Below are positions 29,053 through 64,000 of a stretch of DNA of 64,000 nucleotides, piece by piece. Made by a program: the position numbers and the translations under genes. A model generated the notes under the pieces. The model had not been told where the DNA came from, ran no database searches, and saw nothing but the letters and a program-made list of their open reading frames with translations. The first letter of the stretch is position 1, and each line of letters opens with the position of its first letter. The stretch comes from Alphaproteobacteria bacterium (GTDB lineage: Bacteria; Pseudomonadota; Alphaproteobacteria; JAVJVX01): contig JAVJVX010000005.1 in NCBI GenBank assembly GCA_040220875.1, positions 521,665-585,664 of the forward strand. Direction: 5' to 3'.

Positions 29053-29077
29053 CTCTTTGCTTCACTCCCGATCGCCT

Positions 29078-45743: not shown

Positions 45744-45784
45744 ATCAGGAAATCTTCATATACGGGACCCGGGAAGGCGCAAAG

Positions 45785-46219
45785 TCAGTCGGGCCCGTCC
45801 AGAAGTTTCGAGCCCGCCGTTCCGCTGGCGACGAGTTTGTCGCCGCACCTGACCTGAAACTTCAACTTGACCGTATGGGTGGCCTCTGACTTGTGCGTGA
45901 TGGTTGCCTCCATCACCGCCTCTTCATCGACATACAAGGGCCGATTAAAATCAATTTTCCAACTGGTTGCCAACCCAAAGTCGCCGGGAAGATACATCCC
46001 CACCAGATTGGACAGCCGCGCGACGGTCAATGCCCCGTACACGACAACATCTTCAAAACCCCTGGCGCGCGCAAATGCGCGATCCATGTGTATGCGGCTG
46101 CGGTCGCCGGAGAGCTCCGCGAACTTTTCCATGTCGTCCCGGGACACCGAGAACGGCACGGTCACGGCCATGTCCTGCTGTATCTGATCCCACGTCAGTA
46201 TATTGGGCCTGACCGTCAA
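45785..46219 (-). CDS. MaoC-like (hot-dog fold) dehydratase
   Basis: 144 aa with hot-dog features. Its start overlaps the ACP gene stop by 4 nt. Confidence 0.75.
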   Translation of the reverse strand: MTVRPNILTWDQIQQDMAVTVPFSVSRDDMEKFAELSGDRSRIHMDRAFARARGFEDVVVYGALTVARLSNLVGMYLPGDFGLATSWKIDFNRPLYVDEEAVMEATITHKSEATHTVKLKFQVRCGDKLVASGTAGSKLLDGPD

Positions 46220-46473
46220 CCCGCCGTCCTTTTCTGGATCACTTTGACGAATTCCCCGACGTTGTTCAGGTTGGCGATTTCCCCTGACGAGAACTGAATG
46301 CCGAACTCTTCCTCGACGGCCACGACGAGACGGATGTTGCTGAGACTGTCCCAGGCCGGCACCTCGGCAGCGGTCATCTCCGGATGCGGCACAATATCGT
46401 CGTCATCGAAGACATCCCTGAAAACAGGCGTCAAGCGCTTGTAAACCTCTTCAGTCTCAATCATTTGAACCAA
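46216..46473 (-). CDS. Acyl/peptidyl carrier protein, DltC-like
   Basis: 85 aa. Phosphopantetheine site WDSLSNIRLVVAVEEEFGIQF, closely resembling the DltC DSL…EEEFGI signature. Confidence 0.8.
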   Translation of the reverse strand: MVQMIETEEVYKRLTPVFRDVFDDDDIVPHPEMTAAEVPAWDSLSNIRLVVAVEEEFGIQFSSGEIANLNNVGEFVKVIQKRTAG

Positions 46474-46524
46474 AACCTTCCTTAACGAAGCGATCGGGGC
46501 GCTCTCAAGGCTCGCCGGGGCGCC

Positions 46525-47676: not shown

Positions 47677-47691
47677 GCCGACCCTGTCCAG

Positions 47692-47805
47692 CTAGAAGTT
47701 CTGATACACGAAAAATGTCTGGCCCGAATTCATCAGGAGCAGAATTGCGGCTATCTTAAGGGCCAGCCAGAAGCTGCTGATGAGGAGCCCGGTTCTGTTA
47801 TTCAT
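47692..47805 (-). CDS. Unlisted 37-aa hydrophobic peptide (MNNRTGLLISSFWLALKIAAILLLMNSGQTFFVYQNF), DltX-like
   Basis: Its ATG overlaps the MBOAT stop (TGATG). It ends 12 nt before the SGNH start. One predicted TM helix and a C-terminal Tyr-containing tail VYQNF. It is below the ORF-track size cutoff. Confidence 0.45.
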   Translation of the reverse strand: MNNRTGLLISSFWLALKIAAILLLMNSGQTFFVYQNF

Positions 47806-49028
47806 CACCTAAATCCCAGCATTCTGCCGAAAATACCGCCCCACTCGGAGGCCGACGTCAGCCACAGCGTCAAACTCACCGAAACGAACGAATACACCAT
47901 AAGGCGCTTGGCATAGACGGTCGCGACGTTCGGACCCTGCCCGGCCGCCGCCGATGCCTTGAAGATCTTCTTGTATGCCTGGCTCAGGGCGAGAGCGCCG
48001 CCATGAAGGATGCCGAAGACCAGGAAACCGACCGTGGTCCCATGCCACATGGCGATGAGCACCATGGAGAAGAAATACGAGGCAACCACCAGGGCGAACT
48101 GGTACTGGCGCCGGACGTTTTTAAAAACATAAACGTTTATCGGCGTGAAAATGTAATCCTTCACCAGGCTGCTGAGCGACATATGCCAGCGCTCCCAGAA
48201 CTCCTGGATGTTGGTGGAGTGGAACGGCCGATTGAAATTCTCGACCACCCTGAACCCCATCAGCATCGCGAGCCCGATGACAATGTCGCAATATCCACTG
48301 AAATCCAGATAGATCAGAAGCAACTGCGACATCACGCCGAGCCACAGAACCGGTACAGACATGTCCATAGGATTGTCGAATGCCAGGATGCCGAACACGG
48401 ACAGGTTATCGGCAATCACGAATTTCTTGATCATGCCGTTAGCGATACGGTGCAGGGCCGGCATCACCAGATCCGGGTTCCACTGCGGTTGCGTCATCTG
48501 GGTTTCGAAACGCCGATAGCGTTCGATCGGACCGGCCAGTATGAGTGGGAAAAACAGGATGTAGTTGCAGTAACGCAAAAGGCCGGGTTCTTCGATGAAC
48601 TCGACCTCCATAAGGTAACTGATACTCCTGAATACCATGTAGGAGATGCCGATGATCTGGACCGTCACATAGTAAAACGGGTTAACGGACGAAAATAACG
48701 AACCGTCCCGAACCAGAAACAGGAATGCCCACAAGCCAACGACGCTGACGCCAAGGATTGCCGAAGCCCGAGAGGCTTCGGCGCGCAACCGCCACCGTCC
48801 GATGAAATAGGTGAGGACGATGAACGACACCAGAATGCCGACGGTTTCAACGTTAACGAAGAAGGCCGATATGAAATAAATATTGAAGGCCAGGAGAGTA
48901 ATATTCCTGGCCGTTGCCTTGCCCAGCAGGTTCATCGCGATGACGGCCAGGATCGCGAACAGCAGGAATTCCCAGCTGTTGATCGCAAATCCCGACAGGG
49001 AGTCTCCATTAGCGTCAAATACGGGCAT
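47805..49028 (-). CDS. Membrane-bound O-acyltransferase (MBOAT; DltB/AlgI-like)
   Basis: Polytopic 407 aa. Invariant MBOAT His in ERWHMSLS. Confidence 0.85.
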   Translation of the reverse strand: MPVFDANGDSLSGFAINSWEFLLFAILAVIAMNLLGKATARNITLLAFNIYFISAFFVNVETVGILVSFIVLTYFIGRWRLRAEASRASAILGVSVVGLWAFLFLVRDGSLFSSVNPFYYVTVQIIGISYMVFRSISYLMEVEFIEEPGLLRYCNYILFFPLILAGPIERYRRFETQMTQPQWNPDLVMPALHRIANGMIKKFVIADNLSVFGILAFDNPMDMSVPVLWLGVMSQLLLIYLDFSGYCDIVIGLAMLMGFRVVENFNRPFHSTNIQEFWERWHMSLSSLVKDYIFTPINVYVFKNVRRQYQFALVVASYFFSMVLIAMWHGTTVGFLVFGILHGGALALSQAYKKIFKASAAAGQGPNVATVYAKRLMVYSFVSVSLTLWLTSASEWGGIFGRMLGFR

Positions 49029-49138
49029 CAGGGACTCGTTTCCTGCGTATCGGGTATCGGGCGGGAGTGACTGGCACGGACCTGTGTCAGCCGGTTGCCG
49101 GAGCGGCCGGCCAGGCGGGACCAGCGCTGCGGCACCAT

Positions 49139-50404
49139 CTACCGGGCAGCGGGAAGGATTTCAATCTTGTCGATAAAGAGACCACGATTCGGACCCCGAA
49201 AATCATACCCCATGGCAAGCCTGCACCCGCCTGTATCCCCACATCGAAAATCGACAGACCATGTCGCCGGGCTCGATTTCCACAATCTTTCCGTCGTCTT
49301 GCTTTCCGTCGTCTCGAACTCCGCCCCGCGCTCTATGACGGCCGTATCGCTTTTCGCCCAAAACTTCAAATCCCCCTGACTCGCCCGGTAACTATGGATA
49401 TTAAGCCGGTAGAGGCGGTCGGGCGTCGGGTTTATGAACTCCCATTCAAGGCTGAACGTGTCCCTGTGTGTCCCGAGTGAGCGCCCCATCTCGCCGCTGA
49501 TGCCCATCTCCCGTCCATCCGAGGTCACGTCGGCAAACGCGCCGTCAATTTCGCCCAGGACGAGTCCGTCGGGATGCTCCGACAGATCGACCTGCGGGAA
49601 AAGTACCTTCATGTCGTCCCCGCGCCAGAACCCGTAGGTCCTGGCGTTGCGGATGTAGTCCACGGTGTAAACCTGCTTCATACGCTCATTGTTGTTGACG
49701 CGCCGACCACCTTCCCGATTTTCACTGATGTAGCGATCGATGGTCTTCTGGAAAACGACCATGTTTTCGTGAGCCGTCTCGGGATCCTGCTTGATCTCCT
49801 CCCAGGACATCACATGGTCACCCCGCATGAAGACGCCGGCATATGTGACGTCGAACATGTGCCATGCCCCGTCATAGTAAACCTGCGCAACACTGTGAGC
49901 GCCGAAATTCCTGTTGAAGTTGTAGATGTTGAAAACGCCGGCGGGAATGTTTGCGAACTTGAGCATTTCCACGAACATGCGTGTCTTGGCGCCGCACCGG
50001 CCAACCCGGTTGGAGAACCACGCCAGCGGGTCCCGACCGTAATCGCTGGCCCGGTCGTTGCGGATATTCGAGGATACCCATAATGCCAGACGCATGGTTT
50101 TTTCGGCATCCGTTGTGGCGCCATCCAGGATCCGCTCGACATTGGTCGCCATATCGGATGTGAGAAGCTCCGTCCGGAGCCTGGCGATCTGCTCCAGATT
50201 CCGCCTGTTGGCGGCCTGCAGTTCCTGCCTGAGTTCGGCAATCTCGCCCCGCCCGGGCTGCTTATCCCCAGCCCTGACCGACCGCTCGACTTGAGCGCTC
50301 AGGATCTCGTAGCCGGCAAGATACATCAGCGCCGAAGAGATCAGCGTCGCAATGACGAGGATAATGAGGACGCTTCCGATATTTTTGGGGTTCAGGTTAA
50401 ACAT
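49139..50404 (-). CDS. Membrane-anchored transglutaminase-like cysteine-protease-fold protein
   Basis: N-terminal TM helix. Cys-His-Asp candidates RCGAKTRMFVEML, GAHSVAQVY and WHMFDV. Confidence 0.55.
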   Translation of the reverse strand: MFNLNPKNIGSVLIILVIATLISSALMYLAGYEILSAQVERSVRAGDKQPGRGEIAELRQELQAANRRNLEQIARLRTELLTSDMATNVERILDGATTDAEKTMRLALWVSSNIRNDRASDYGRDPLAWFSNRVGRCGAKTRMFVEMLKFANIPAGVFNIYNFNRNFGAHSVAQVYYDGAWHMFDVTYAGVFMRGDHVMSWEEIKQDPETAHENMVVFQKTIDRYISENREGGRRVNNNERMKQVYTVDYIRNARTYGFWRGDDMKVLFPQVDLSEHPDGLVLGEIDGAFADVTSDGREMGISGEMGRSLGTHRDTFSLEWEFINPTPDRLYRLNIHSYRASQGDLKFWAKSDTAVIERGAEFETTESKTTERLWKSSPATWSVDFRCGDTGGCRLAMGYDFRGPNRGLFIDKIEILPAAR

Positions 50405-50430
50405 TCGTTTTTATCTGATCTTTCCCGGAT

Positions 50431-50991
50431 CTATTGAGCGGTGAGCGCGTCCATATCTAGGAGGTTCTTTTCAAGCACGAGGAGGCCCTCGTCACTTGTC
50501 CTGAACAGAAGCGATCCGTAGTACCTGAACGAATCGGGATCGGCCGTATCGTATTCATCGGCGCTGAAGATGGAAACGTAGTCGATCTCGACGCTGGTGA
50601 GGTCAGAGAAATACTCCTCGTTGCAGATATAACGAGTGCCCAGCATCTTCCCCGTGTCCACAAAGGCAGCGACACGGCTTTCGACGTCGCGATCGACCAG
50701 TTGATCCCATGCGGGCTGAACATCGAGGGCAATGTACAGGACCTCACCATCCTTCTCGGGTGTCACATCCCGGAAGTCGATGTGCAGCGCATCGGCGAGT
50801 TCCAGCGGAGCTTCGCACGCGATGCCGGGGGAATTCTTTTTGCCGCCCCCGGCAAGCGCCGCGCCCTGTCCGGCCAGCGACAGGGTCACCATCACCGCCA
50901 GCCCGAGCAGAGCGGTCCGGGATATCTGGAAGGTATTGCGGGCGGCGCAAAGAACGCCGGCGGGCCGAACGGCCTTGTTTGGCTTGTGAAC
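50431..50991 (-). CDS. Small secreted protein of unknown function
   Basis: Signal-like ALLGLAVMVTLSLAGQGAALA. The start is uncertain (GTG near 50991 or ATG near 50892). First gene of the minus-strand operon. Confidence 0.35.
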   Translation of the reverse strand, partial: VHKPNKAVRPAGVLCAARNTFQISRTALLGLAVMVTLSLAGQGAALAGGGKKNSPGIACEAPLELADALHIDFRDVTPEKDGEVLYIALDVQPAWDQLVDRDVESRVAAFVDTGKMLGTRYICNEEYFSDLTSVEIDYVSIFSADEYDTADPDSFRYYGSLLFRTSDEGLLVLEKNLLDMDALTAQ

Positions 50992-51375
50992 CACTTTCAA
51001 ACCTGCTCTATCGCGGCGCCTTTGCGCCTCTTGCGGCCGGGCCGGGTTTTCCGGAGTATAGCGGCCGCGTTCCACCACAATCCGCTTTTGCGGCGACAAT
51101 AGAGGGGAGGCGGTCGACCACGGTTTTGCCGCCACAAGCTATCAAATTACGCGTTGATCCATCAAGTTAGACTTTACCTCCGCATGAGGCGAAACGGCTG
51201 GATTGCCCGACAAAAATCGGGGGAAAGTCGAGAAGGCCCTTACCCCCCCTTGGGACCAGGCGCCTATTCTGGCATACCAGGATGGCCGCGGCGGGAAGCG
51301 GCCACGCGGCCGGCCTTCGGCCCGGCCGGATTGCCGCGATCTGGCTGTCTGGCTGTCTGGTGAGGAGAATTCGGA

Positions 51376-53379
51376 ATGCCATCTCGATTTTTGTGGCGGA
51401 TGAAACAGCGTTTCATCTCCCTCCCCATCCCGCGCACCGCGCTTCTGATTGCAACAGGCCTCGCGGCAATATTTCTCGTCCCCATGTTTTCCGTTTCGGC
51501 GGAATCCTACCGAAACACGCTCTCCTTCATCGATTCCGTCGATCCTTATCAAAAAGAGGGACTTGTCGAGATTTACGGCGGAGAGCTGCGCCTGCCCAAG
51601 GACGGGCCCGTCGGCATAAAATCCGCCCAGTTTCAGATACTCGATTCACACGCCCTCCTGGTCTGGAGCCAGGGCCGCTTTCCGGCCGACGGCGCGACAC
51701 ATCTGGAGCTGAGGTTTGAGCGCCCGGTCCCCGCGCGGCTCCCCTTCAGGGTCGGAATCGCGCTCAGGAACGGAGAGGTGCATACTTTTTATCCGAAGGA
51801 TCAATTCACTTTTCCGGATCCGAGTTCTGTCGGGCCCTATCTTCGCAACATCCCCGACGAGTTGATCGCGGGCCTGGAAAAACAGGGGGAGCCGACCAGC
51901 CTGGAGAAAATCGGGGAAGGCCTTTACCGCGCGCCCCTCGCCGATCTGCGCCTTGATTCCGCCGATCCCGGCACCGGGATCGACTATTTCTTCATCGAGT
52001 GGGTCGGCGCACAAGGCCAGACAGTTTCTATCCGGAATCTCGGCCTTGTGACTCTTTTGGACGAACCCGGACCGGATACGATCGACGTCAAAGGCCGGGT
52101 CATCGGAAATGCCGAGCCGGGAACGCCGGTGCGGATGCTGTCTGAAGCCGGCGAAACGAGATCGTCGGCCTTGGCGGCCGATATGGAATTTACTTTTGCG
52201 GATGTTCCCGCTGACAGCCGGGTTTCAATCTGGCTTCGCGAGGCGGAGACCGATTTCTTTGTCACCCATGGCCGCTGGATCGAGGCGGCGACCGCCCAGG
52301 GCCGGCTGGTTATCGATACCCGCCCCCGGATATCCCTCTCGCAAGAGGTCACGAATCCCGAAAAACCCAAGCCGCCGCCACGCGACCTGTCGCGCCCCAA
52401 TAGCAGCCTGTTCCCGAGAAAGAGCAAGTATTTTGGCCTGAGGGTCCCGCATTCGCGCCAGCTCTATACGGGCATCCCGGGGAAGGTCACGGAATTCCAC
52501 AACGTCACCTTCGCCAATAATTATGGATATTTTGACCGGGACAGGTTTTTCGACAATCCGGACGGCTGTTTCCGGGCCGTCGTGATGGGGCCGAGCACGA
52601 TCACCAACATCATGCACCGGACGACGGAGAAGTTTAATGTTCTGCTCGAGGCGGAGCTGGGCGTCCGACTGCAAAAATGTGCGGAAATCATCGCCGCCGG
52701 CCAGGGCGGCGCGCCACCCTCCAACCACTACCAGCGCATGGAAACCTATGTTCGCGCCTTCAAGCCGGATGTGGTTCTGATCGAGGTGGAGGTGGGGACG
52801 CTGACGTTTCTGCACCCGATCCTTCAGCAGAAGATATTGGGCGTCGATCCGGAGCATCCCCGATGGGGCGCCGTCTATTACGATGAGGGAGGCCGGCTCC
52901 AGTTCCGGCCCAGGGATGTGCGATATCGCCGCCACCTGACGCCCAGGGACATGTCTCCATTGAAGAGCGACGTCCTGCCCAACCAGGCGCTCCTGATACC
53001 GTACGATCGGATGCCGCCGGAAGGCCGGGAAACGTTTGCCATTTTTCGCGATTTTCTGGACAAGCTGAAGCGGGAAAACCCGGATATACGTTTTATCCTG
53101 TTTTCATTCCATGCCCAGATCCGGGCGGCGCAGGACCCCTCGACCGGCCGGCAGCCCCACGCGCTTGAAAACGGCGAGACAACAGAATTGGGATTCGAGA
53201 TTTTCGCCGAGAATGTCCGGCGCTTCTGCGAGGAGAATGATTTCGAGTGCATTGTCCCGCCCCTCCCCTCCGGCATCGAGGACGAGGATCGCTACCTCAC
53301 CTGGCGGTACGACAACCACCTGTCCTACCGGGGTCAGCAATGGCTGTCGCATATGCTGACGGACGCGCTCGCACCCTGA
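51376..53379 (+). CDS. Large exported protein with C-terminal SGNH-like (AlgX/AlgJ-type) domain
   Basis: N-terminal signal/TM. The C-terminal half has a block-I-like VVMGPSTITN (Ser retained, Asp replaced by Pro) and block V DNHLSYRGQQWLSHML. RBS GAGGAG. Confidence 0.5.
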   Translation: MPSRFLWRMKQRFISLPIPRTALLIATGLAAIFLVPMFSVSAESYRNTLSFIDSVDPYQKEGLVEIYGGELRLPKDGPVGIKSAQFQILDSHALLVWSQGRFPADGATHLELRFERPVPARLPFRVGIALRNGEVHTFYPKDQFTFPDPSSVGPYLRNIPDELIAGLEKQGEPTSLEKIGEGLYRAPLADLRLDSADPGTGIDYFFIEWVGAQGQTVSIRNLGLVTLLDEPGPDTIDVKGRVIGNAEPGTPVRMLSEAGETRSSALAADMEFTFADVPADSRVSIWLREAETDFFVTHGRWIEAATAQGRLVIDTRPRISLSQEVTNPEKPKPPPRDLSRPNSSLFPRKSKYFGLRVPHSRQLYTGIPGKVTEFHNVTFANNYGYFDRDRFFDNPDGCFRAVVMGPSTITNIMHRTTEKFNVLLEAELGVRLQKCAEIIAAGQGGAPPSNHYQRMETYVRAFKPDVVLIEVEVGTLTFLHPILQQKILGVDPEHPRWGAVYYDEGGRLQFRPRDVRYRRHLTPRDMSPLKSDVLPNQALLIPYDRMPPEGRETFAIFRDFLDKLKRENPDIRFILFSFHAQIRAAQDPSTGRQPHALENGETTELGFEIFAENVRRFCEENDFECIVPPLPSGIEDEDRYLTWRYDNHLSYRGQQWLSHMLTDALAP

Positions 53380-55203: not shown

Positions 55204-56565
55204 TTGAAAAAGTTCACCGAGCTCGGCCTTGCCGAGCCCCTCCTTCGCGCCATCACGGCAGAAGGCTATACCCGGCCAACGCCAATCCAGGCAGAGCTGA
55301 TCCCCGTGCTGCTCGCCGGGCGCGACGCCGTCGGCATCGCCCAGACCGGCACCGGCAAGACGGCGGCCTTTGTGCTGCCGTTACTGAACCGCCTTGCCGG
55401 CGATCGCCTGCCGCGCCTGCCAAAATCCTGCCGGGCCCTGATCCTGGCGCCGACCCGCGAGCTTGCGGCGCAAATCGCGGACAACATCCGCACCTACGGC
55501 CGACATGTTCGCCCGCAGGTCGCAGTCATCGTCGGCGGGACGCGGCCAGGCCCTCAGATTCGCAGCATGGCGCCTGGCGTCGATATCCTGGTCGCCACGC
55601 CGGGGCGGCTGCTCGACCACATGTCAAGCGGCGCTGTGCGCCTCGAAGGCGTGAGCACACTTATCCTCGATGAGGCGGACCAGATGCTTGACCTGGGGTT
55701 CCTGCCGGCGATCCGGCGGATCGTGGCCAGGGCACCGTCGAAAAGGCAGACCGTCCTCCTGTCGGCCACCATGCCCGGACCCATCCGGGCGCTTGCGAAC
55801 GACTTTCTCCGTGCGCCGGCGGAAATCTCCGTCACACCGGCCTCACGTCCGATCGAGCGCATCGAGCAGAAGGTAATTCACGTGCCGCATCCGGCGAAAC
55901 GCCGGGTGCTGGTGGAGGTGCTGAGGGACCGGGCTGTGGAGCGGGCCATCGTCTTCACCCGCACCAAGCGCGGGGCCGACCGCGTGACCCAACACCTGAT
56001 GAAGGCGGGGATCGACGCCGCCGCGATCCATGGGGACAAGAGCCAGGGCCAGCGCGAACGGGCGCTCGGCGCGTTCCGGAGCGGAAAGACCATTATCCTG
56101 GTAGCGACCGACATTGCGGCCCGCGGGATCGATGTCGACGACGTCTCGCACGTCGTCAACTACGAGCTGCCAAATGTTCCCGAGGCTTACGTCCATCGCA
56201 TCGGGCGCACGGCACGGGCGGGCAAGAATGGCGTGGCGGTGTCGTTGTGCGACGTCGGAGAACGTCCCTATCTCCGTGACATTGAGAAGCTGATCGGCCG
56301 CGCGATCGAGGTGTCGGGGGACATTCGTCCTGCGCCCGGCGATGAGGCGACCCCGCGCCTCCCGGGCCGGCAGCCGGAGAAGTCACGGCACAAGGAACAG
56401 CAGCACAAATCGCAACAGAAGAAGAAAAACGGGCAGCGGAACGCCGGCCGTGGTCGCGGCCGCAACAATCCGGGAGGTTCTTCGGGGGCCCCGGGCCGCC
56501 CCGCGCGGGCGCCTCAGTCGAACAGACGGCGGCGCGCGGGCTCGGGATCGAGCGCAGCCAGGTAA
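55204..56565 (+). CDS. DEAD-box ATP-dependent RNA helicase (RhlE-like) with Arg/Gly-rich C-terminal tail
   Basis: Q-motif GYTRPTPIQ, Walla A TGTGKT, DEAD, SAT, HRIGRTAR. The probable start is the TTG at 55204; upstream ORF residues are non-helicase. Confidence 0.85.
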   Translation: MKKFTELGLAEPLLRAITAEGYTRPTPIQAELIPVLLAGRDAVGIAQTGTGKTAAFVLPLLNRLAGDRLPRLPKSCRALILAPTRELAAQIADNIRTYGRHVRPQVAVIVGGTRPGPQIRSMAPGVDILVATPGRLLDHMSSGAVRLEGVSTLILDEADQMLDLGFLPAIRRIVARAPSKRQTVLLSATMPGPIRALANDFLRAPAEISVTPASRPIERIEQKVIHVPHPAKRRVLVEVLRDRAVERAIVFTRTKRGADRVTQHLMKAGIDAAAIHGDKSQGQRERALGAFRSGKTIILVATDIAARGIDVDDVSHVVNYELPNVPEAYVHRIGRTARAGKNGVAVSLCDVGERPYLRDIEKLIGRAIEVSGDIRPAPGDEATPRLPGRQPEKSRHKEQQHKSQQKKKNGQRNAGRGRGRNNPGGSSGAPGRPARAPQSNRRRRAGSGSSAAR

Positions 56566-56628
56566 GAGCGAAACCCCGCGCGCGACCGGCCGACCGGTCC
56601 GGTCACGACGCGTGGCGATACCCTTGCG

Positions 56629-56895
56629 TCAATGGAAGCCAGCGACGAAGGTTGTGGGCGTGAGGGTGGCGTGGACATCGTGCGGCCGAACCCAGCTTCC
56701 CGATAACCCGACCGGCTCGTGGCCGATCGCCAGGCCCTTCTCGACCGGATATTCGCCTTTCAGGATATGGACGTCGGTGCCGCAGATCGTAGTGGTGGTG
56801 ATGCGGATCAGCGCGTCGAGCGGTCCTACATCGGGCAGGGGTTTCTCGTCCAGCACGATACGGTTCGGCTCCACGAAGACAGCACATTTCATCAT
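56629..56895 (-). pseudogene. Truncated remnant of a Zn-dependent alcohol dehydrogenase (N-terminal GroES-like domain only)
   Basis: First about 65 aa match ADH_N (ICGTDVHILKGEYP…GHEPVG). The ORF then degenerates and ends about 60 nt from the convergent helicase stop. Confidence 0.55.
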
Positions 56896-56953
56896 CTGGG
56901 TCTTAGCCGCATCCTCCTAAGCAATATACACCGTCCACCAACCGACCGTTCTG

Positions 56954-57232
56954 CTACGGTCTATCGATCTTGTCGGATCCTGAGCCTGTTTCATCTGCCG
57001 GCGTAGCATGCATATCGTGGTCTCGAGGCCGGTTGGCAAGCCTGTCCAAGTAGCTCTCCAGGTCTTCGGCGGCGATCCGCCACTCCCGGCCGACGTTGAT
57101 GCCACGGAGATCGGCACCCTTGATCCAGGCGCAAACGGCTGATCCGCCGACCTTGAGTAGGTTGGCCACCTCTTTGACCGAGGGAAACTGGCGCGTCAGC
57201 ACATGAGGGTATACGAGTTCATCTAGACGCAT
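56954..57232 (-). mobile_element. Excisionase-family helix-turn-helix DNA-binding protein (Xis/AlpA-like)
   Basis: LTRQFPSVKEVANLLKVGGSAVCAWIKGADLRGINVGREWRIAAEDLESYL matches the excisionase-family HTH consensus. It is followed by an AT-rich patch at 57.24-57.52 kb. Confidence 0.65.
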
Positions 57233-57514
57233 TTGACGTTATAAGATGCGACTTCTGCGCTCTTTGATGCAGGCTCAAGGTCGTTCATGGATGGAGCAAT
57301 GAGGCAGATTGCACCACGGCGGCGGTTCCTGGCGCGCTGGGATTGATCGAGCGGCCTTTCGATTCACTTCATTCGAAATACTCGATATCGATCATGTGTT
57401 TTCACGAAGCCCCTCATCCATAGAGCGAGGGAAAAGGCTATGGTAACATTTCGCAATATGTAGGACCTGTTTGAGTGAATATTGCTTTCTGATCCAATGC
57501 ATTAAAGGGAGCAC

Positions 57515-57766
57515 TTGACCATGTCGGAAGATAGCGGGCGGCCCCTGACGGAAATGGGCCCTGAAAAATCGAGGGGGCCGCGGACTCTTCTGCAGTGGGT
57601 TTGCGCTCTTGTCGGGACCGCAGCTGCGGTGGTCATTCTGTGGGTGCTCGGATTGACCGTGTGGTCGGCCATGGCGCTGCTGTTCTTGATCGCATGCCCG
57701 CTCGTGGTGGTCTGGATTCTGGTGCTTCAACGGCGCCTGAAAACGCGATCGGGGAACGGGCCATGA
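57515..57766 (+). CDS. Small two-TM membrane protein translationally coupled to copA
   Basis: RBS AAGGGAG. Its stop overlaps the copA ATG (ATGA). 83 aa. Confidence 0.45.
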   Translation: MTMSEDSGRPLTEMGPEKSRGPRTLLQWVCALVGTAAAVVILWVLGLTVWSAMALLFLIACPLVVVWILVLQRRLKTRSGNGP

Positions 57767-60276
57767 ACGACAAAGCGTCCCCAACCGCCGCGGCCTGGAC
57801 GGCAACACTGTATGTCCCCGGCATGGGCAGCGACCACTGCGCCGGCATCGTTTCCACCTCACTCAAGCGCGTGGACGGCGTGAGCGATGTGCGCACCAAT
57901 ATCGCGGCGCACCGTGTCGAGGTTCGCTTTGACATCGCGCGTGTCGACAAGGACGCCTTGCGAGCTGCGGTCGAGCGGGCGGGCTACGACGTCGATCGTG
58001 TGGATGCGGAAGATGGAGAAGCCGGCCGCGAGATTCGCTTAACCGTGCCAGGCATGGGCAGCGATCACTGTGCCGGTATCGTTTCGGAATCCATTCACCG
58101 GCTCTCGGGCATCAGCGAAATCGGCACAAATATCGCCAATCATCGCGTAACCGTTCGCTTCGATCCCGCACAAGCAAGTGCTGATACGATCAGAAACGCA
58201 GTTGAACGCGCGGGCTACGATGTCGCCGGCGTTGAAACGGTTGCAACAGCGACACCGTCTGCCGGAGAAGAAGCCGAGGAACGTTATCTTATCCAGGCAT
58301 GGAAACGGCTGTGGATCGCCGCGGTTCCGACCACCCTGATCATGGTGCTAATGGCAGTCCACATGTTCTGGGTTCCGGTCCCGGGATATCTCGCCATCGT
58401 CGCAGTGCTCGCTTTTCCGGTGGTGTTCACTTACGGCGGTGTGGCCACTCACCGTTCGGCCTGGCGTTCGCTGACCAACCGCACGGCCAACATGGACGTG
58501 CTGATCTCAATGGGCAGCCTGCCACCCTATCTGATCGGTCTCGTCGGCTTCGTCTATCCGATGACCTCGTTCATCGAGATGGCCGCGACAATCATGACTT
58601 TCCACCTATTGGGCCGCTACCTCGAAACCCGGGCCAAGGGTCGGGCCTCCCAGGCGATCAAGCGGCTCATTACGATGGGCGCCAAGACGGCTGCTGTTCT
58701 ACGCGCCGGCCAGGAAGTGGAGGTGCCTGTCGCGGAGTTGCAGGTCGGTGACATCATGGTGGTGCGTCCCGGCGCCAAGGTACCGACCGACGGGGAGATC
58801 ATCGAGGGCAACAGCCATCTCGACGAGTCCATTGCCACCGGCGAATCCGTCCCCATCGAAAAGGGCCCGGGCGACCCAGTGATCGGCGCCACCATTAACA
58901 AGGAGGGCATGCTCAAGGTTCGCGCCGCCAAGGTGGGCGCAGATACATTCCTCTCGCAGGTAATCCGGCTCGTCGAAGAGGCACAGGGCTCCAAAGTCCC
59001 CATCCAGGAGTTCGCCGACCGCGTCACGGCGCGGTTCGTGCCGGCGGTGATCCTGATCAGCCTGGCGAGTCTCGTAATCTGGCTGCTGTTCGCGGAAGAG
59101 CTTCGGCCGATCCTAGCCTGGGGCGCCGGCTTCCTACCGTGGGTGGATCCGACCCTTGCACCGCTCATGGTCGCCATTTTGTCCGCCGTCGCGGTGCTGG
59201 TCATTGCCTGTCCCTGTGCGCTGGGGCTCGCCACACCGACTGCGATCATGGTCGGTTCCGGTCTGGGAGCGGAGCGCGGCATCCTGATCCGTTCGGGTGA
59301 AGCCATCCAAACACTGAAGGACGTCAAGGTCGTCGTTCTCGACAAGACCGGGACAATCACCGAAGGGCGCCCATCGCTGACCGACGTGATCGCGGCCGAG
59401 GGGTTCGATGAAAAAACGGTCCTTCGGGGGGCGGCGTCCGTCGAAGCCGGGTCGGAACATCCGCTGGGCCAGGCGATCGTTTCCGGTGCCAGGGAGCGCG
59501 GCCTGGATGTCCCTGCCGTCGAAGGCTTCAAGGCAATTACGGCGCGCGGCGTCGAGGGGCGGGCTGCTGGGCGCCTCGTCAGAGTGGGAAGCCGTCGGCT
59601 CCTCAACGAATCGGGCATCGAGCTTGGCTCGCTCGACGAAGCGCTGACGAGCCTCGAAACCGAAGGCAAGACGGCGATGCTGGTTGCCATCGAGGATCGG
59701 GCCGCGGGCATCGTCGCCGTCGCGGACACTATCAAGGCCGATTCGAAGGCCGCTATCGCCTCCCTGCACGAGATGGGTATCCTGGTTGCGATGGTGACGG
59801 GCGACAATGAACGCACGGCAAAGTTCGTGGCCTCGCAGGTCGGCATTGACGAGGTCATGGCGGGCGTGCTGCCGGAGGGCAAGGTCGAGGCCATCCGCGC
59901 GCTTCAACAGAAGCACGGCAACCACGTAGCGATGGTGGGCGACGGCATCAACGACGCACCGGCGCTCAAGCAGGCGAACGTCGGGATCGCGATCGGCGCA
60001 GGCGCGGACGTGGCCATCGAGGCCGCCGACGTCACGCTGGTCAAGGGAGAGCTGACAAAAGCTGTCGAGGCGATCCGCCTATCCAGGGCAACATTCGGAA
60101 AAATTCTCCAAAACCTGTTCTGGGCCTGGTTCTACAACGTCGCCGCGATCCCGGTCGCCGCCCTCGGTCTCCTCCACCCGATGGTGGGCGTTATTGCCAT
60201 GACCGCGAGCTCGCTCTCCGTGATCGGTAATTCACTGCTGTTGAAGCGCGCGCGGATCGAGGTGCACAAGCCGTGA
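57763..60276 (+). CDS. copA: Cu(I)-translocating P1B-1-type ATPase (CopA-like) with two N-terminal HMA-like domains
   Basis: CPC in TM6, DKTGTIT, GDGINDAPAL. TM7 NX6YNX4P and TM8 PX6MXXSSX5N signatures of Cu+ pumps. Start reassigned to the ATG at 57763. Confidence 0.88.
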   Translation: MNDKASPTAAAWTATLYVPGMGSDHCAGIVSTSLKRVDGVSDVRTNIAAHRVEVRFDIARVDKDALRAAVERAGYDVDRVDAEDGEAGREIRLTVPGMGSDHCAGIVSESIHRLSGISEIGTNIANHRVTVRFDPAQASADTIRNAVERAGYDVAGVETVATATPSAGEEAEERYLIQAWKRLWIAAVPTTLIMVLMAVHMFWVPVPGYLAIVAVLAFPVVFTYGGVATHRSAWRSLTNRTANMDVLISMGSLPPYLIGLVGFVYPMTSFIEMAATIMTFHLLGRYLETRAKGRASQAIKRLITMGAKTAAVLRAGQEVEVPVAELQVGDIMVVRPGAKVPTDGEIIEGNSHLDESIATGESVPIEKGPGDPVIGATINKEGMLKVRAAKVGADTFLSQVIRLVEEAQGSKVPIQEFADRVTARFVPAVILISLASLVIWLLFAEELRPILAWGAGFLPWVDPTLAPLMVAILSAVAVLVIACPCALGLATPTAIMVGSGLGAERGILIRSGEAIQTLKDVKVVVLDKTGTITEGRPSLTDVIAAEGFDEKTVLRGAASVEAGSEHPLGQAIVSGARERGLDVPAVEGFKAITARGVEGRAAGRLVRVGSRRLLNESGIELGSLDEALTSLETEGKTAMLVAIEDRAAGIVAVADTIKADSKAAIASLHEMGILVAMVTGDNERTAKFVASQVGIDEVMAGVLPEGKVEAIRALQQKHGNHVAMVGDGINDAPALKQANVGIAIGAGADVAIEAADVTLVKGELTKAVEAIRLSRATFGKILQNLFWAWFYNVAAIPVAALGLLHPMVGVIAMTASSLSVIGNSLLLKRARIEVHKP

Positions 60277-60521
60277 CTGACAATCATTCGACGAAGCAAA
60301 TCGAAGGTCCCAGGCGCTCGTTCTGGAATACGCCGGCCGGCTTCGCGCTCTGCGTCTTCCTAGCAATCGGTGGCGTGTTCATATGGCTGGAGCATCGCGC
60401 CCACATTCTGGGGGAATTGCCGCTGTTGCTACTCCTGATCATCTGCGTCGGCATGCATTTCTTCATGCATCGCGGTCACGGTGGCCACCGCGGAGGGGGC
60501 GCAGGTCGAGATGAACGGTGA
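60273..60521 (+). CDS. DUF2933-like small membrane protein with His-rich C-terminus
   Basis: 82 aa, two TM helices, tail HRGHGGHRGGGAG. It overlaps the copA stop. Confidence 0.5.
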   Translation: MTDNHSTKQIEGPRRSFWNTPAGFALCVFLAIGGVFIWLEHRAHILGELPLLLLLIICVGMHFFMHRGHGGHRGGGAGRDER

Positions 60522-61167
60522 CGTGCCCGCTTACGGTCTGTGGTTCCTGGTCGTCATCAACGCGGCGATCTTCATTCTATTCGCGTTCAGCTTTTTCAGG
60601 CCACGGACCGCACACGACTGGCGCTCTCTGGGGGCATTTTCAGCCTTCATCGTCGCGTTGTTCGCCGAAATGTACGGGTTTCCGCTGACGCTCTACCTGC
60701 TCGCTGGCTGGCTCGGCAATCGATTCCCTGCGCTCGATCCGATGTCTCACGACGCCGGGCACCTCTGGCCGGCGTTGTTCGGTTGGTCGATGGACCCGCA
60801 CTGGAGCCCATTCCATTTGCTGAGCTTCGTGTTCATCGGGGGCGGCTTCATCCTGATCGCCAAGGCCTGGCGTGTCCTTCACGACGCGCAACGGGAGGGA
60901 AAATTGGCCACGACCGGGCCCTATGCCCGGGTCCGACACCCCCAATACGTCGGCTTCGCCCTCATCATGATCGGATTCTTCCTGCAGTGGCCAACGCTGG
61001 TGACCGGACTGATGCTGCCGATCCTGCTCGTGATGTACTGGCGCCTCGCCCGGCGCGAGGAACGCGAGGTCGAGGCGGCCTTCGGCGATGCGTATCCCAC
61101 CTATGCCCGTCGCGTTCCGGCGTTTTTCCCATCCCTAGTCTTGGCGTCGAAAGAGCGTGCTGCATGA
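60511..61167 (+). CDS. ICMT/PEMT-family membrane methyltransferase (isoprenylcysteine carboxyl methyltransferase-like)
   Basis: Conserved GPYARVRHPQYVGFALIMIGFFL segment. Confidence 0.7.
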   Translation: MNGDVPAYGLWFLVVINAAIFILFAFSFFRPRTAHDWRSLGAFSAFIVALFAEMYGFPLTLYLLAGWLGNRFPALDPMSHDAGHLWPALFGWSMDPHWSPFHLLSFVFIGGGFILIAKAWRVLHDAQREGKLATTGPYARVRHPQYVGFALIMIGFFLQWPTLVTGLMLPILLVMYWRLARREEREVEAAFGDAYPTYARRVPAFFPSLVLASKERAA

Positions 61168-61212: not shown

Positions 61213-61695
61213 ATGAGACTGACAGCGCTAACTACCTTCCTCATCACGGGATTTCTGCTGGTCGCTGTAGCGGCCACCGCGCATGCGCAGGCAACAGATC
61301 AAGGGCCCCACGCACATCATCCGGAGGAAACCCGGACCACGCCCGAAGCGCAGGCACCCGGCACAGCAGCGGCTCCGCCTGCCGCAATGAATCAGGGCAA
61401 TCCGGGCATGGTGCACATGATGTCGGGTGCCGGTTCCGCCTCTCCTTTGGCCATGATGGGAAATCATGGCGTGATTTACGGCATGCCGGAGGCCCGGGAA
61501 GAGGTGACGCCCCAGCGTGTGCGCGCCTTTCCGGAGAGGTATCTGGCCTGGCACGACAATCCGCGCCTGAGGTTGGGCAAAATCTCGAAAGCCGAGGATG
61601 GCAGCATCACAGCCAAGATCGTCACCATCGACGGCTCGTTGGTGCAGAAGTTCGCCTTCAACCGCTACCCTGGCCTGTTCCGGCAGGTCCAGTGA
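61213..61695 (+). CDS. Secreted Met/His-rich protein (candidate periplasmic copper-binding protein)
   Basis: Signal peptide ending AHAQA. HAHHPEE, GMVHMMSGAG and MMGNHG motifs. Confidence 0.5.
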   Translation: MRLTALTTFLITGFLLVAVAATAHAQATDQGPHAHHPEETRTTPEAQAPGTAAAPPAAMNQGNPGMVHMMSGAGSASPLAMMGNHGVIYGMPEAREEVTPQRVRAFPERYLAWHDNPRLRLGKISKAEDGSITAKIVTIDGSLVQKFAFNRYPGLFRQVQ

Positions 61696-61729: not shown

Positions 61730-63094
61730 ATGAGTGCCCGACTGTCTTTCCTCGGTGCAGTCGGCACCGTCACGGGTTCGAAATACCTGCTCGAGTATGA
61801 CGGTGCGCGTATCTTGATCGATTGCGGGCTCTTTCAGGGGTTCAAGCAGCTCCGCTTGCGCAATTGGGCGCCCCTCCCGACTGATCCGCAACGTATTGAC
61901 GCCGTGGTTTTGACCCACGCCCATCTCGATCATTCAGGCTATCTGCCGCTCCTGGTCCGAAAGGGGTTCGCGGGTCAGGTCGTCTGCACTGAGGCCACGC
62001 GGGATCTTTGCGAGATCCTGCTCCCCGATAGTGGTTACCTGCAGGAGAAGGATGCCGAGTTCGCCAACCGACATGGCTTCTCGAAGCACCGCCCTGCGCT
62101 GCCACTCTACACGAAGGCCGACGCCGACGCCTGTATGGATCGCTTCGCGACGGTCGCTTTTGGCAACGAGACGAAAATCGCCGACAAGTTCTCCGTCCGT
62201 TTCTTGCCTGCCGGCCACATTCTCGGCGCGGCCATTGTGGAAGTTCGTTTTGCCGGGCGGACCCTCGTCTTCTCCGGCGATTTGGGGCGACCCAATAGCG
62301 CCACAACGGTCGATCCCACGCCTGTCGCTCATGCCGATTACCTGGTCGTCGAATCGACTTACGGCGATCGGCGTCATGAGACGCAGGACGCAGAGGAGGT
62401 GCTTGCCGAGGTCATCAACCATACGGCCGCGCGGGGCGGCACCGTCCTCATCCCAGCGTTCGCGGTCGGTCGAGCCCAGTCGCTTCTCTTCCACCTCCAG
62501 CGCCTGAAGGCGAATAAGCGCATCCCCGACTTGCCCATATTCCTCGACAGTCCGATGGCGATCGATGCGAGTGAGGTGTTCTGCAAGCATATCGAGGCAC
62601 ACCGGCTGACCACCGAGCAATGCCGAAAGGCTTGCAGTATTGCCCGCTACGTGCGCGAACCGGAGGAATCCAAGTCGCTCGACCGCGAGATTATGCCAAA
62701 GATCATCATCTCGGCGAGCGGTATGGCGACCGGTGGGCGAGTCCTTCACCACCTGAAGCATTTCGCGCCGGACCGCCGCAATACCATTCTTTTCACGGGC
62801 TTCCAGGCGGGCGGGACGCGTGGTGCCGCCATGACAGCCGGTGCAGAGAGTGTAAAGATTCATGGCAGCTACATCCCGATACGGGCAGAGGTCGCCAACC
62901 TGCAAATGTTGTCGGCACACGCCGACGCGGACGAGATCATGACGTGGCTGGGACACTTCGCCGATCCACCACGCACGACCTTCGTGACACATGGCGAGCC
63001 GGCCGCCTCGGATGCTCTGCGCCACCGGATCGCGGAAGAACTCGGATGGCCTTGCACGGTGCCGGACTACCGCGATGAAACCGAGCTGACATGA
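61730..63094 (+). CDS. MBL-fold beta-CASP hydrolase (RNA-metabolising metallo-beta-lactamase family)
   Basis: HAHLDHSG motif and beta-CASP-like C-terminal segments. Start reassigned to the ATG at 61730. Confidence 0.8.
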   Translation: MSARLSFLGAVGTVTGSKYLLEYDGARILIDCGLFQGFKQLRLRNWAPLPTDPQRIDAVVLTHAHLDHSGYLPLLVRKGFAGQVVCTEATRDLCEILLPDSGYLQEKDAEFANRHGFSKHRPALPLYTKADADACMDRFATVAFGNETKIADKFSVRFLPAGHILGAAIVEVRFAGRTLVFSGDLGRPNSATTVDPTPVAHADYLVVESTYGDRRHETQDAEEVLAEVINHTAARGGTVLIPAFAVGRAQSLLFHLQRLKANKRIPDLPIFLDSPMAIDASEVFCKHIEAHRLTTEQCRKACSIARYVREPEESKSLDREIMPKIIISASGMATGGRVLHHLKHFAPDRRNTILFTGFQAGGTRGAAMTAGAESVKIHGSYIPIRAEVANLQMLSAHADADEIMTWLGHFADPPRTTFVTHGEPAASDALRHRIAEELGWPCTVPDYRDETELT

Positions 63095-64000
63095 CGGCGA
63101 AGCCACCACCGAACGCTGCGCTCAACCGGTCGGCCCCGAACACCCTACGCGCACGGCGCCTCGGGATCGACACGCAATACGAGGCGGTCGTGTTCATGCG
63201 CGAGGACTGCCCCATCTGCCGGTCCGAAGGATTTGCGGCCCAGGCGCGGGTTCGGCTGACGCACGGTGAGCAGTCGGTCATTGCGACCCTGTATCACGTC
63301 AGCGGGGACTTGCTCAGGCACGACGAGGCCGGCCTGTCGGAGTCGGCCTGGCACCGTCTGGGACTCGTCGACGGCGAGCTGATTTCCGTGAGTCACCCGC
63401 GCCCGCTCGACTCTCTGAGCAAGGTTCGCGCGAAGGTCTATGGGGAGCCCTTTGACGCAATCGCACTCGAGGAAGTTGTCACCGATATCGTCGCCGGCAG
63501 GTACTCGGACATTTATTTGTCCTCGTTCATTACCGCTTGTTCCGCAAGACCCCTCGACCATGACGAGACGGTCGCGTTGACGAGAGCGATGGCGGATGCT
63601 GGCGAACGCCTAGATTGGGACACCACGCCTATCGTCGACAAGCACTGCGTCGGCGGCCTTCCAGGAAACCGAACCACGCCGATCGTCGTTGCCATTGCGG
63701 CTGCTTGTGGCCTCACCATGCCGAAAACATCATCCCGGGCGATCACGTCGCCGGCGGGAACGGCGGACGCCATGGAAACCCTGGCTCCGGTCGATCTCGA
63801 CATCCCTGCCATGAGGAATGTCGTAGAACGCGAGGGCGGCTGCGTGATCTGGGGCGGAGCGGTGCGCCTGAGCCCCGCGGACGACACGCTAATCCGTGTC
63901 GAGCGCGCCCTCGATCTCGATAGTGGAGGTCAACTTGTCGCTTCCGTGTTGTCGAAGAAAATCGCCGCCGGCTCCACCCACCTGATTCTTGACCTGCCCG
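63091..64000 (+). CDS. Thymidine-phosphorylase-family protein (putative thymidine/AMP phosphorylase type), 3' end outside window
   Basis: Not in the ORF track because there is no stop before the window end. Its ATG overlaps the MBL gene stop (ATGA). My own translation shows DKHCVGGLPGNRTTPIVVAIAAACG and SSRAITSPAGTADAMETL, matching phosphorylase phosphate/glycosyl-site motifs. Confidence 0.7.
   Translation, partial: MTAKPPPNAALNRSAPNTLRARRLGIDTQYEAVVFMREDCPICRSEGFAAQARVRLTHGEQSVIATLYHVSGDLLRHDEAGLSESAWHRLGLVDGELISVSHPRPLDSLSKVRAKVYGEPFDAIALEEVVTDIVAGRYSDIYLSSFITACSARPLDHDETVALTRAMADAGERLDWDTTPIVDKHCVGGLPGNRTTPIVVAIAAACGLTMPKTSSRAITSPAGTADAMETLAPVDLDIPAMRNVVEREGGCVIWGGAVRLSPADDTLIRVERALDLDSGGQLVASVLSKKIAAGSTHLILDLP

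Follow-up and report, generated by a model that had tools for sequence, protein, structure and literature searches.

The stretch analyzed here covers 955 bases within a window of 64,000 nucleotides of alphaproteobacterial DNA, and it lies between an intact RNA helicase gene and a copper-export gene set (Table 1). It holds the stub of an alcohol dehydrogenase (ADH) gene, a small HTH_17 gene and an AT-rich spacer, all at or near the positions given by an earlier, sequence-only reading, which had taken the stretch for the boundary of an integrative element. The join of helicase, ADH stub, HTH gene, sm81 and CopA was found again in at least five independent assemblies and is therefore not an assembly artefact. 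Only two strains are known, the window strain and a sister strain (strain B) that is 99.3% identical to it, and both carry the gene block that begins at this seam.

Table 1. Features of the seam, its left neighbor and the gene block on its right
Feature	Position	Strand	Basis or remark
DEAD-box RNA helicase, RhlE-like, intact	55204..56565	+	Pfam DEAD and Helicase_C, NCBIfam RhlE-type
Spacer, 117 bp, helicase stop to ADH breakpoint	56566..56682		without matches
Zn-dependent NAD(P) alcohol dehydrogenase pseudogene stub	56683..56895	-	codons 1-62 in frame, frameshift, codons 63-71, truncation
Spacer, 58 bp, HTH stop to ADH start	56896..56953		no homologue found (ADH loci, ~180 fetched loci)
HTH_17 / TIGR01764 gene, 92 aa	56954..57232	-	Pfam HTH_17 and NCBIfam TIGR01764, above curated cut-offs
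AT-rich spacer, 288 bp, between divergent HTH gene and sm81-copA	57233..57520		48.3% GC
sm81, 81 aa, hydrophobic, probably membrane protein	57521..57766	+	first gene of shared copper module
CopA, Cu(I)-type P1B ATPase, two N-terminal HMA domains	57763..60276	+	Pfam, NCBIfam
DUF2933 small membrane protein	60273..60521	+	Pfam; syntenic with copA in 19/39 long loci
PEMT/ICMT-like membrane methyltransferase	60481..61167	+	Pfam, NCBIfam; syntenic in 18/39 long loci
160-aa signal-peptide protein, Met/His-rich stretches	61213..61695	+	homologues in 16/39 long CopA loci
Beta-CASP metallo-beta-lactamase-fold RNase-like protein	61730..63094	+	Pfam, NCBIfam; syntenic in L030, L040, L047, L056
Thymidine-phosphorylase-family gene, 5' part, runs off window	63091..64000	+	same accessory block
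tRNA-Ser(CGA)	L168 18501-18589, equivalent to 70230-70318	-	3' end faces block

The left neighbor of the seam, the helicase gene, is convergent with the ADH stub. Outside its own cluster, which holds one 99% strain variant, relatives of the helicase reach at most 74% identity, and the named ones come almost all from Alphaproteobacteria. Synteny was not kept in the contexts of the orthologues P0011, P0023, P0009 and P0032, all within that 74%. The spacer that follows the helicase stop gave no blastn match in about 180 fetched loci or in the rest of the 73 kb available (the window and the 9 kb to its right), and shuffled sequence yielded an equally good RNA fold (z -0.6). Zero differences separate the two strains over this spacer. 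No notable repeats were seen around the seam; a 13-nt inverted repeat around the HTH gene (56919/57475) was considered as a MITE and rejected, being close to chance expectation.

The stub lies in an ORF of 88 aa (56629-56895, minus strand) that matches Pfam ADH_N at residues 25-63 (E 2.6e-6) and shares 89% identity over residues 1-63 with full-length ADHs of 355 aa. A frameshift follows residue 62, after which homology resumes as 'VIGKLGSAA' (residues 63-71) and ends at about 56683; most alignments, to fetched ADH loci and to 61 plasmid ADH genes, end between 56683 and 56691. The truncated remnant recognized earlier is thus a real pseudogene of about 71 codons with one frameshift, in which only codons 1-71 are left of a complete enzyme of about 355 aa with GroES-like catalytic and Rossmann NAD(P) domains. 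Its ORF stops 63 bp, and its homology 117 bp, from the helicase stop. The sister strain carries the identical frameshift and breakpoint, and a tblastn search with a full-length relative as query revealed no further ADH pieces, either within the window or over the next 9 kb on its right side.

It had been proposed that insertion of an element disrupted the ADH gene. The missing 3' part points to the helicase and not to the copper block, and therefore insertion of the copper block did not split the gene; the geometry is wrong for such an event, and the 3' part is also absent at the other end of the block. We likewise rejected the idea that recurrent ADH N-terminal fragments mark a shared insertion hot spot, as the short matches end at differing positions. 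Those matches are frameshifted calls or contig ends, and the closest of them (L087) is a full-length gene with frameshifts. Full-length ADH relatives lie less than 10 kb from module-type genes at six of the 34 loci of at least 12 kb (L087, L088, L090, L096, L123 and L166) and at the short locus L101; the majority are located away from module genes. Searches by tblastn and with a family HMM likewise revealed no such HTH gene immediately preceding a full-length ADH. More probably, the stub is cargo left behind.

The HTH protein scores above the curated cut-offs of both HTH_17 (33.4 bits, cut-off 27) and TIGR01764 (34.4 bits, cut-off 28.8). The latter model describes an excisionase-family DNA-binding domain, so the protein does possess the winged-helix domain expected of an excisionase. 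It was previously described as Xis/AlpA-like. No further Pfam family was matched at E <= 0.01, AlpA's PF05930 and the MerR models included, PHROG excisionase matches were weak (23 bits), and a sequence search against the PDB gave no match. Among 1.84 billion representatives, only five relatives were found at E <= 1e-10, the best being 57% identical. The closest annotated relatives (40-54% identity) reside on six plasmids, and one metagenomic relative is 39% identical. In all seven contexts that were read, the layout is USP <-> HTH_17 -> cation transporter, and in none of the seven is the gene beside an integrase. The relatives lead cation:proton antiporter or P-type ATPase operons, the P-type ATPase occurring in Actibacterium, with FNR-type boxes in four of the seven spacers. 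We conclude that the HTH gene, itself divergent and orphaned, belongs to a subfamily whose members normally stand at the head of USP-linked cation-transporter operons. Small size and an equal DNA-binding domain are shared with Xis-type HTH_17/TIGR01764 proteins, but here there is no partner integrase and the closest relatives lead USP-linked transporter operons. The HTH gene is therefore not a demonstrable excisionase, and both the AlpA likeness and the role of Xis marker fall away.

Separately, the regular recurrence of the layout USP <-> HTH_17 -> cation transporter, together with FNR-type boxes, is a small side lead to a possible regulatory unit. An 82-aa ORF that follows the HTH gene of L087 was examined as an sm81 homologue and rejected, having turned out to be the N-terminal part of a frameshifted cation:proton antiporter.

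To the right of the seam, sm81 overlaps copA by ATGA, and copA in turn directly overlaps the DUF2933 gene. Homologues of sm81 lie directly upstream of copA in ten loci (including L006, L029, L030, L031, L047, L056, L061, L072 and L073), and the leftmost DNA homology to any CopA-module locus starts at 57579 (L006). The left edge of the copper module is thus sm81, and no CopA locus shares the ADH stub, the AT-rich patch or, by tblastn and a family HMM, the HTH gene. All parts of the metal-resistance block expected from the letters alone (copA, DUF2933, ICMT-like and Met/His-rich protein) were confirmed. The ORFs from 56.9 to 61.7 kb gave no MerR or cupredoxin Pfam matches; a merR is present at L047. 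CopA relatives with 70-87% identity occur across Alpha-, Beta- and Gammaproteobacteria, Planctomycetes and Sumerlaeota, and module synteny recurs at many of these cross-class and cross-phylum loci. Judged by these sequence relationships, the copper set is evidently a horizontally spread module, a fitting cargo for horizontal transfer.

A merR-copA-cupredoxin-DUF2933-ICMT cluster has been reported on genomic islands and plasmids of Alteromonas and diverse other genera (Cusick et al. 2021, PMC8478169). The module described here has in common with those clusters the order copA, DUF2933, ICMT-like methyltransferase and a wide, non-phylogenetic distribution. Unlike them, it has no merR upstream, where sm81 instead follows a unique AT-rich spacer and a divergent HTH_17 gene; it has no cupredoxin gene between copA and DUF2933; and it is followed by the Met/His-rich protein and a beta-CASP, TP-like and PRPP-synthetase set.

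The AT-rich segment, put at about 280 bp in the sequence-only reading, was confirmed at 288 bp; the same reading's estimate of 65% GC for the window has to be corrected to 62.0%. Among 288-bp windows taken over the whole 73 kb, the GC content of the segment ranks in the lowest 0.06%, and four further GC troughs reach 0.483-0.49. The spacer contains AAAGGGAG as a ribosome-binding site ahead of sm81. It gave no match against CopA, ADH or HTH loci, no sigma-70 consensus, terminator or operator dyad was scored in it, and Rfam and RNA folding gave nothing. The only FNR-box match is an unconvincing one with two mismatches at -163. At nine other loci, the sm81 homologue directly follows other genes, without an AT-rich gap. 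Because the module's usual upstream genes and its MerR regulator are missing here, the spacer is presumed to hold the promoter or promoters of sm81-copA.

Such an arrangement would also suit a working divergent regulatory unit, in which the MerR-like winged-helix HTH_17 protein would bind the AT-rich spacer and control sm81-copA, its own gene or both, in place of MerR/CueR. The gene pair is indeed divergent around the spacer, the merR known from L047 and from the published clusters is missing, and relatives of the HTH gene precede cation transporters, including the P-type ATPase of Actibacterium. Moreover, the window strain has an intact HTH ORF, as do all five places shown for the exact sequence (eight contigs read). 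In those relatives, however, gene and transporter are co-directional rather than divergent, and the downstream partner of the HTH gene here is a dead ADH stub. Strain B has an intact copper module, yet its HTH gene has lost the start codon (ATG to ATA) and carries R14A, C34R and K27P, the last a helix-breaking change in the first helix. With four non-synonymous changes against one synonymous, the HTH gene is under relaxed selection and is decaying in the sister strain. The protein also lacks the dimerisation helix of MerR and the Cys pair of a MerR/CueR-type metal sensor. Its sole cysteine, C34, lies inside the HTH, where relatives carry arginine, and its tail is acidic and unconserved. Given in addition a spacer free of dyad operators and promoter consensus, and CopA loci that all lack this HTH, we consider a working regulatory unit unlikely.

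A broader conjecture, which we regard as a long shot, is that the HTH_17 gene may represent a subfamily of small regulators, so far undescribed, that lead FNR-box-controlled cation-transporter operons in USP (hypoxia-type) clusters. One copy would then have been captured beside a mobile copper-ATPase module without its MerR, and would control the module from the AT-rich spacer. 

Among known systems, the low-oxygen-activated (lxa) locus of Burkholderia cenocepacia (Sass et al. 2013, PMC3721108) combines a Zn-alcohol dehydrogenase, a metal-dependent RNase, a cation-transporting ATPase and universal stress proteins. Its repertoire is similar in kind to that of the present block, a likeness by annotation only; unlike the lxa locus, this block has no USP gene and its spacer no convincing FNR box. 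A DUF2933-ICMT operon is a target of FixK2 (FNR-type) in Bradyrhizobium.

Past the window, the block continues with genes for a PRPP synthetase, a SHOCT protein, p153, an amino-acid permease and a Na/Ca exchanger, followed by a low-GC ORF and tRNA-Ser(CGA). In total, the accessory block measures about 13.7 kb: it starts at the helicase stop (56565) and reaches the tRNA gene 6.2 kb beyond the window, ending at that gene's 3' end, a classic site for islands. The ORF adjoining the tRNA gene (252 aa) has a GC of 0.52 and a GC3 of 0.53, and no Pfam, NCBIfam or PHROG match. The sister strain is colinear until 9 nt into the tRNA 3' end and unrelated beyond, a break that could be a metagenome mis-join. 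Recent exchange is indicated by the stretch from 61.7 to 66.4 kb, which is nearly identical in the two strains against a difference of about 1% elsewhere. No block-free close relative was found, either in a genome-collection scan with the lineage-specific neighbor p497 or among helicase relatives.

A still-excisable integrative element would explain an end at a tRNA gene with a strain-variable join, and the HTH gene, above both cut-offs and with its weak PHROG matches, would be its excisionase (recombination directionality factor), with an integrase located further along. The sequence-only reading had indeed allowed for an integrase beyond the window. Up to 9 kb past it there is none: no integrase Pfam family was matched in the called genes from 51.7 kb to 73 kb, the vicinity of the tRNA gene included, nor in the 30 large ORFs of the window. 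The direct repeats or att sites then suggested for a search did not appear at 20 nt or more. No second copy of the 20-, 30- or 45-mer from the tRNA-Ser 3' end was found in the 73 kb at up to 25% mismatches, cores below about 12 nt being indistinguishable from chance, and no repeat of the tRNA 3' end occurs near the seam. This absence, the seven of seven HTH relatives that lead cation-transporter operons next to USP genes and not integrases, the lack of a PF05930 match, and the loss of the start codon and the K27P change in the sister strain make an excisable element very improbable. The 955 bases are better read as an old, inactive seam beside a copper-export gene set, ordinary in nature, than as the working end of a mobile element.

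The absence of a compositional discontinuity had been named beforehand as grounds for abandoning the boundary altogether, and the scan of 56-70 kb revealed no break in tetranucleotides (correlation z -0.5 to +0.4) or in GC3. The block has a GC3 of 0.69-0.79, as do p667 and p497 to its left, with deviations inside it confined to the 288-bp spacer and the ORF next to the tRNA gene. These data, together with the lack of integrase and repeats, would agree with there being no island at all, but a long-resident chromosomal stress and metal cluster that underwent internal deletions (of the ADH 3' part and of the HTH partners) and adjoins the tRNA gene by coincidence. The seam is present in both strains with similar divergence (about 0.7-1%) on its two sides, and CopA, with 79-87% identity to some Alphaproteobacteria, exceeds the helicase (up to 74%) only modestly. 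On the other hand, vertical descent cannot account for CopA at 70-79% identity in Gamma- and Betaproteobacteria, Planctomycetes and Sumerlaeota. A low-GC ORF and a strain break at the tRNA 3' end, the near-identity of 61.7-66.4 kb between strains, and the published association of the copper cluster with genomic islands (PMC8478169) also argue against permanent residence, which we therefore judge improbable. Of the proposed boundary, what stands is accessory, horizontally spread DNA to the right of the seam in a block that ends at a tRNA 3' end; integrase, att repeats, compositional break and excisionase do not.

The ADH stub, the HTH gene and the AT-rich spacer are not usual neighbors of one another or of the copper module. 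The explanation that we favor, with slightly better than even confidence, is that an old accessory block lacking an integrase has, at its tRNA-distal edge, a decayed patchwork seam formed by these three pieces. The main cargo of this block is the horizontally spread copper-efflux set of sm81, copA, DUF2933, ICMT and Met/His-rich protein, joined to the beta-CASP, thymidine-phosphorylase-like, PRPP-synthetase, SHOCT and p153 genes and two transporters. The block would have entered at the tRNA gene. The three mutually unrelated pieces of the seam, among them an HTH_17 gene apparently parted from its usual partners (a USP gene upstream, a cation transporter downstream), would remain from earlier cargo that deletion or recombination removed, and the unique spacer may now serve as holder of the copA promoter. 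Nothing directly shows an insertion event, and the foreign DNA could in truth extend further to the left, where 45-52 kb is compositionally odd. Integrase-less tRNA islands, degenerate or 'anchored', show the same features: accessory cargo bounded by the 3' end of a tRNA gene, a join there that varies between strains, a low-GC ORF beside the tRNA gene, and pseudogene debris at the far edge. Unlike in tRNA-associated islands, no integrase, direct repeat or compositional signal was found here, nor an empty-site relative, and we therefore infer island status rather than observe it.

The significance of these results is small and mainly a matter of annotation hygiene. An 'excisionase family' label from TIGR01764/HTH_17, beside a pseudogene and an AT-rich gap, should not be taken to mark an island where there is no integrase. 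The known mobile copA-DUF2933-ICMT module, for its part, gains one host, an unclassified alphaproteobacterial MAG lineage, and one layout, with neither merR nor cupredoxin.

The segment at 56566-57520 is flanked by a rightward helicase gene on its left and a rightward copper-export operon on its right (Table). The elements that the sequence-only reading placed at this seam, an alcohol dehydrogenase (ADH) remnant, an HTH gene, an AT-rich patch and copper genes, were confirmed, and their join is present in at least five independent assemblies. The GC content of the window was measured at 62.0%, rather than the 65% given earlier. The contig is readable for 9 kb further right, and across the resulting 73 kb the spacer ranks in the lowest 0.06% of 288-bp windows; GC troughs of 0.483-0.49 occur at four further places, so that the spacer is striking but not unique.

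Table. Features of the seam, the copper operon and the right end of the block
Feature	Position	Strand	Description
DEAD-box helicase	55204-56565	+	RhlE-like, intact; left neighbour of the segment
ADH-stub ORF, 88 aa	56895-56629	-	identity to full-length Zn-dependent NAD(P) ADHs
Gap, 58 bp			separates HTH ORF from ADH ORF (minus-strand reading order)
HTH ORF, 92 aa	57232-56954	-	above curated cut-offs for Pfam HTH_17 and NCBIfam TIGR01764 (excisionase family DNA-binding)
Spacer, 288 bp			48.3% GC; from HTH start to sm81
sm81, 81 aa	57521-57766		hydrophobic protein, unannotated; first gene of operon, good ribosome-binding site ahead
copA	57763-60276		after sm81
252-aa ORF	L168 (continuation of the contig) 17689-18447 (= 69418-70176)		GC 0.52, GC3 0.53; beside tRNA 3' end
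tRNA-Ser(CGA)	L168 18501-18589 (= 70230-70318, beyond window)	-	3' end faces block

Residues 1-62 of the ADH stub are 89% identical to full-length 355-aa enzymes. A one-base frameshift follows, past which ADH homology runs for nine more codons (VIGKLGSAA) and ends, at 56683-56691 in most alignments to the fetched ADH loci and in those to 61 plasmid ADH genes. The remnant is real, with an extent of 56683-56895 and not 56629-56895 as first proposed. Neither the window nor the next 9 kb holds a further ADH piece, and the 117 bp from the breakpoint to the helicase stop codon matched nothing. Since the missing 3' part faces the helicase, the ADH gene was not the insertion site of the copper block.

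Full-length ADH relatives have contexts of their own, such as HlyD-RbbA-ABC permease. A minority, at seven loci, have module-type genes within 10 kb: p153 and the amino-acid permease (L088), copA, DUF2933 and ICMT (L090), a universal stress protein (USP) gene, HTH_17 and an antiporter (L087), beta-CASP (L101), or P-type ATPases (L096, L123, L166). Six of the seven come from the 34 loci of at least 12 kb, L101 being a shorter locus. The B. cenocepacia lxa locus brings together a Zn-ADH, a metal-dependent RNase, a cation ATPase and USPs (PMC3721108), gene kinds similar to those of the ADH and module neighbourhoods when compared by annotation only. Given these neighbours and the lxa gene mix, the stub is plausibly leftover cargo from the same stress-gene pool. 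At L087 (ERZ2680845, 1.79-Mb contig), frameshifts split many genes (ADH, antiporter, SNF transporter) into short ORFs, which has the look of assembly error and gives rise to false 'truncated ADH' protein entries in the database.

A word-index search returned only one near-identical relative of the HTH protein. When 1.84 billion representatives were searched exhaustively with HMMER, no more than five relatives reached E <= 1e-10, and the best of these was 57% identical. The closest annotated relatives (40-54% identical) are plasmid- or chromid-borne, in Skermanella (two contexts), Paracoccus, Actibacterium, Agrobacterium and Martelella, and a seventh context is that of a metagenomic relative (39% identical) in L087. 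All seven are alike, with one or two USP genes on one strand, the HTH gene on the opposite strand and, 0-135 bp after it, a cation:proton antiporter, or in Actibacterium a cation P-type ATPase instead. This triad recurs in L172-L177 and L087, and in four of the seven an FNR-type site, TTGAC-N4-ATCAA, stands in the USP-HTH spacer, 71-95 bp before the HTH start. In none of the seven contexts does an integrase stand beside the HTH gene, as it would beside an Xis, and an AlpA-family match is absent from the reported domain matches. The gene had been taken for an Xis/AlpA-type marker; it cannot be demonstrated to be an excisionase.

In the window, the HTH gene has neither a USP nor a cation transporter partner. 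(A second P-type ATPase in the window, at 39999-42710, is of the type II cation class (Cation_ATPase_N/C), as found after HTH_17 in Actibacterium, but has no adjoining HTH gene.) In a sister strain the HTH start codon is ATA, and the protein carries K27P in its first helix and two other replacements, versus one synonymous change; the 2.5% divergence is the highest of the annotated genes in the 18.5 kb compared. With its lost start codon, replacements and top divergence, the gene looks like one under relaxed selection. Its position ahead of the copper operon could suit a working regulator of copA, which we consider unlikely beside these signs of decay.

The sm81 gene overlaps copA by ATGA, and copA is followed by genes for DUF2933, a PEMT/ICMT-like methyltransferase, a Met/His-rich signal-peptide protein (p160), a beta-CASP hydrolase and a thymidine-phosphorylase-family (TP) protein, the last crossing the window's end. 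The sm81 product matched no Pfam or NCBIfam family and is probably a membrane protein; the label 'Flp pilus assembly protein TadB', given by one source, looks wrong. Its homologues lie immediately 5' of copA in at least ten loci of different classes. When one genome per species was scanned, CopA relatives 70-87% identical turned up in Alpha-, Beta- and Gammaproteobacteria, Planctomycetes and Sumerlaeota, whereas helicase relatives outside its own cluster are at most 74% identical, the named ones almost all alphaproteobacterial. The order sm81-copA-DUF2933-ICMT-p160 is retained in many CopA loci, and beta-CASP, TP, PRPP synthetase, SHOCT and p153 genes also in some. Since diverse genera are reported to carry copA-DUF2933-ICMT, with merR and a cupredoxin gene, on genomic islands and plasmids (PMC8478169), the module is a mobile unit, already described, and the DNA right of the seam is horizontally spread. 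Here the module begins on the left with sm81, and DNA homology to any other locus extends no further left than 57579. The AT-rich spacer, HTH gene and ADH stub occur in none of the CopA loci, and the sm81 homologue at nine other loci directly follows upstream copper genes or a MerR gene, without an AT-rich gap. Another tRNA-adjacent copy of the module is L031 (Propylenella MAG), where tRNA-Arg(CCT) (5095-5171) lies ~400 bp from the start of the homologous copper region.

Past the TP-like gene come PRPP synthetase, SHOCT, p153, an amino-acid permease (whose homologues accompany the module at other loci too), a Na/Ca exchanger, the 252-aa ORF and tRNA-Ser(CGA), then a 215-aa ORF of unknown family and rplU-rpmA-obg. 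A tRNA 3' end is the kind of site where islands sit. The 252-aa ORF has no Pfam, NCBIfam or PHROG match; it occupies the position expected of an integrase but is not one. The sister strain is 99.3% identical and colinear from 51.7 kb to 9 nt inside the tRNA 3' end, and then continues (L170 18510 onward) into unrelated DNA with formamidase, ABM and Rieske genes; the break reflects a strain-variable hot spot or else a metagenome mis-join. Only 3 differences separate the strains in ~4.6 kb, from 61730 to 64000 and on to the equivalent of 66437 (L168 10001-14708), with flanks at ~0.7-1.2%. The low divergence of this stretch, which holds the beta-CASP, TP-like, PRPP-synthetase, SHOCT and p153 genes, suggests that it was recently recombined or exchanged between lineages as a sub-block.

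No integrase domain was found in the genes called from 51.7 to 73 kb, tRNA side included, or in 30 large ORFs inside the window, an integrase having been suggested to lie beyond the window or to have been lost; nor do the 73 kb hold a second copy (at least 20 nt) of the tRNA 3' end. A still-mobile element with its Xis, as first envisaged, is very improbable. Tetranucleotide usage of 56-70 kb is like the rest (z -0.5 to +0.4) and the block genes have the same GC3 (0.69-0.79) as the genes left of the helicase, so the quantitative scan shows no compositional discontinuity of the kind an island boundary had implied. Clear tetranucleotide outliers in the 73 kb are confined to 24000-30000 (Rieske oxygenase and a DUF1329 gene) and 45000-52000 (MBOAT, transglutaminase-like and GDSL-like genes), with z about -2 to -3.2 and GC down to 0.48-0.53; these two stretches make a stronger case for recent acquisition than the copper block does. 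Three DUF1329/LolA-like paralogues (13141-14628, 26004-27275, 36362-37657) and two large MalT-type LuxR regulators (18258-21026, 23040-25847) lie within 25 kb.

Both strains share the ADH frameshift and breakpoint and differ by ~0.7-1% left and right of the seam alike, indicating that the arrangement is older than the strain split. No block-free relative was found, a scan with a lineage-specific neighbour gave nothing, and the neighbourhoods of more distant helicase orthologues are unrelated. An alternative without an island, in which a resident cluster suffered internal deletions, would suit the uniform composition; set against the wide spread of CopA, we hold it to be improbable.

We lean towards reading the seam as a decayed patchwork that marks the far edge, away from the tRNA, of an old accessory block lacking an integrase, and consider this somewhat probable. 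The copper module would be the block's live cargo, while the ADH stub and HTH gene would be debris of cargo carried earlier; of the seam's parts, only the AT-rich spacer would be likely to function, as the region now upstream of sm81-copA. This reading and all its rivals are ordinary biology, and the seam demands no new mechanism.
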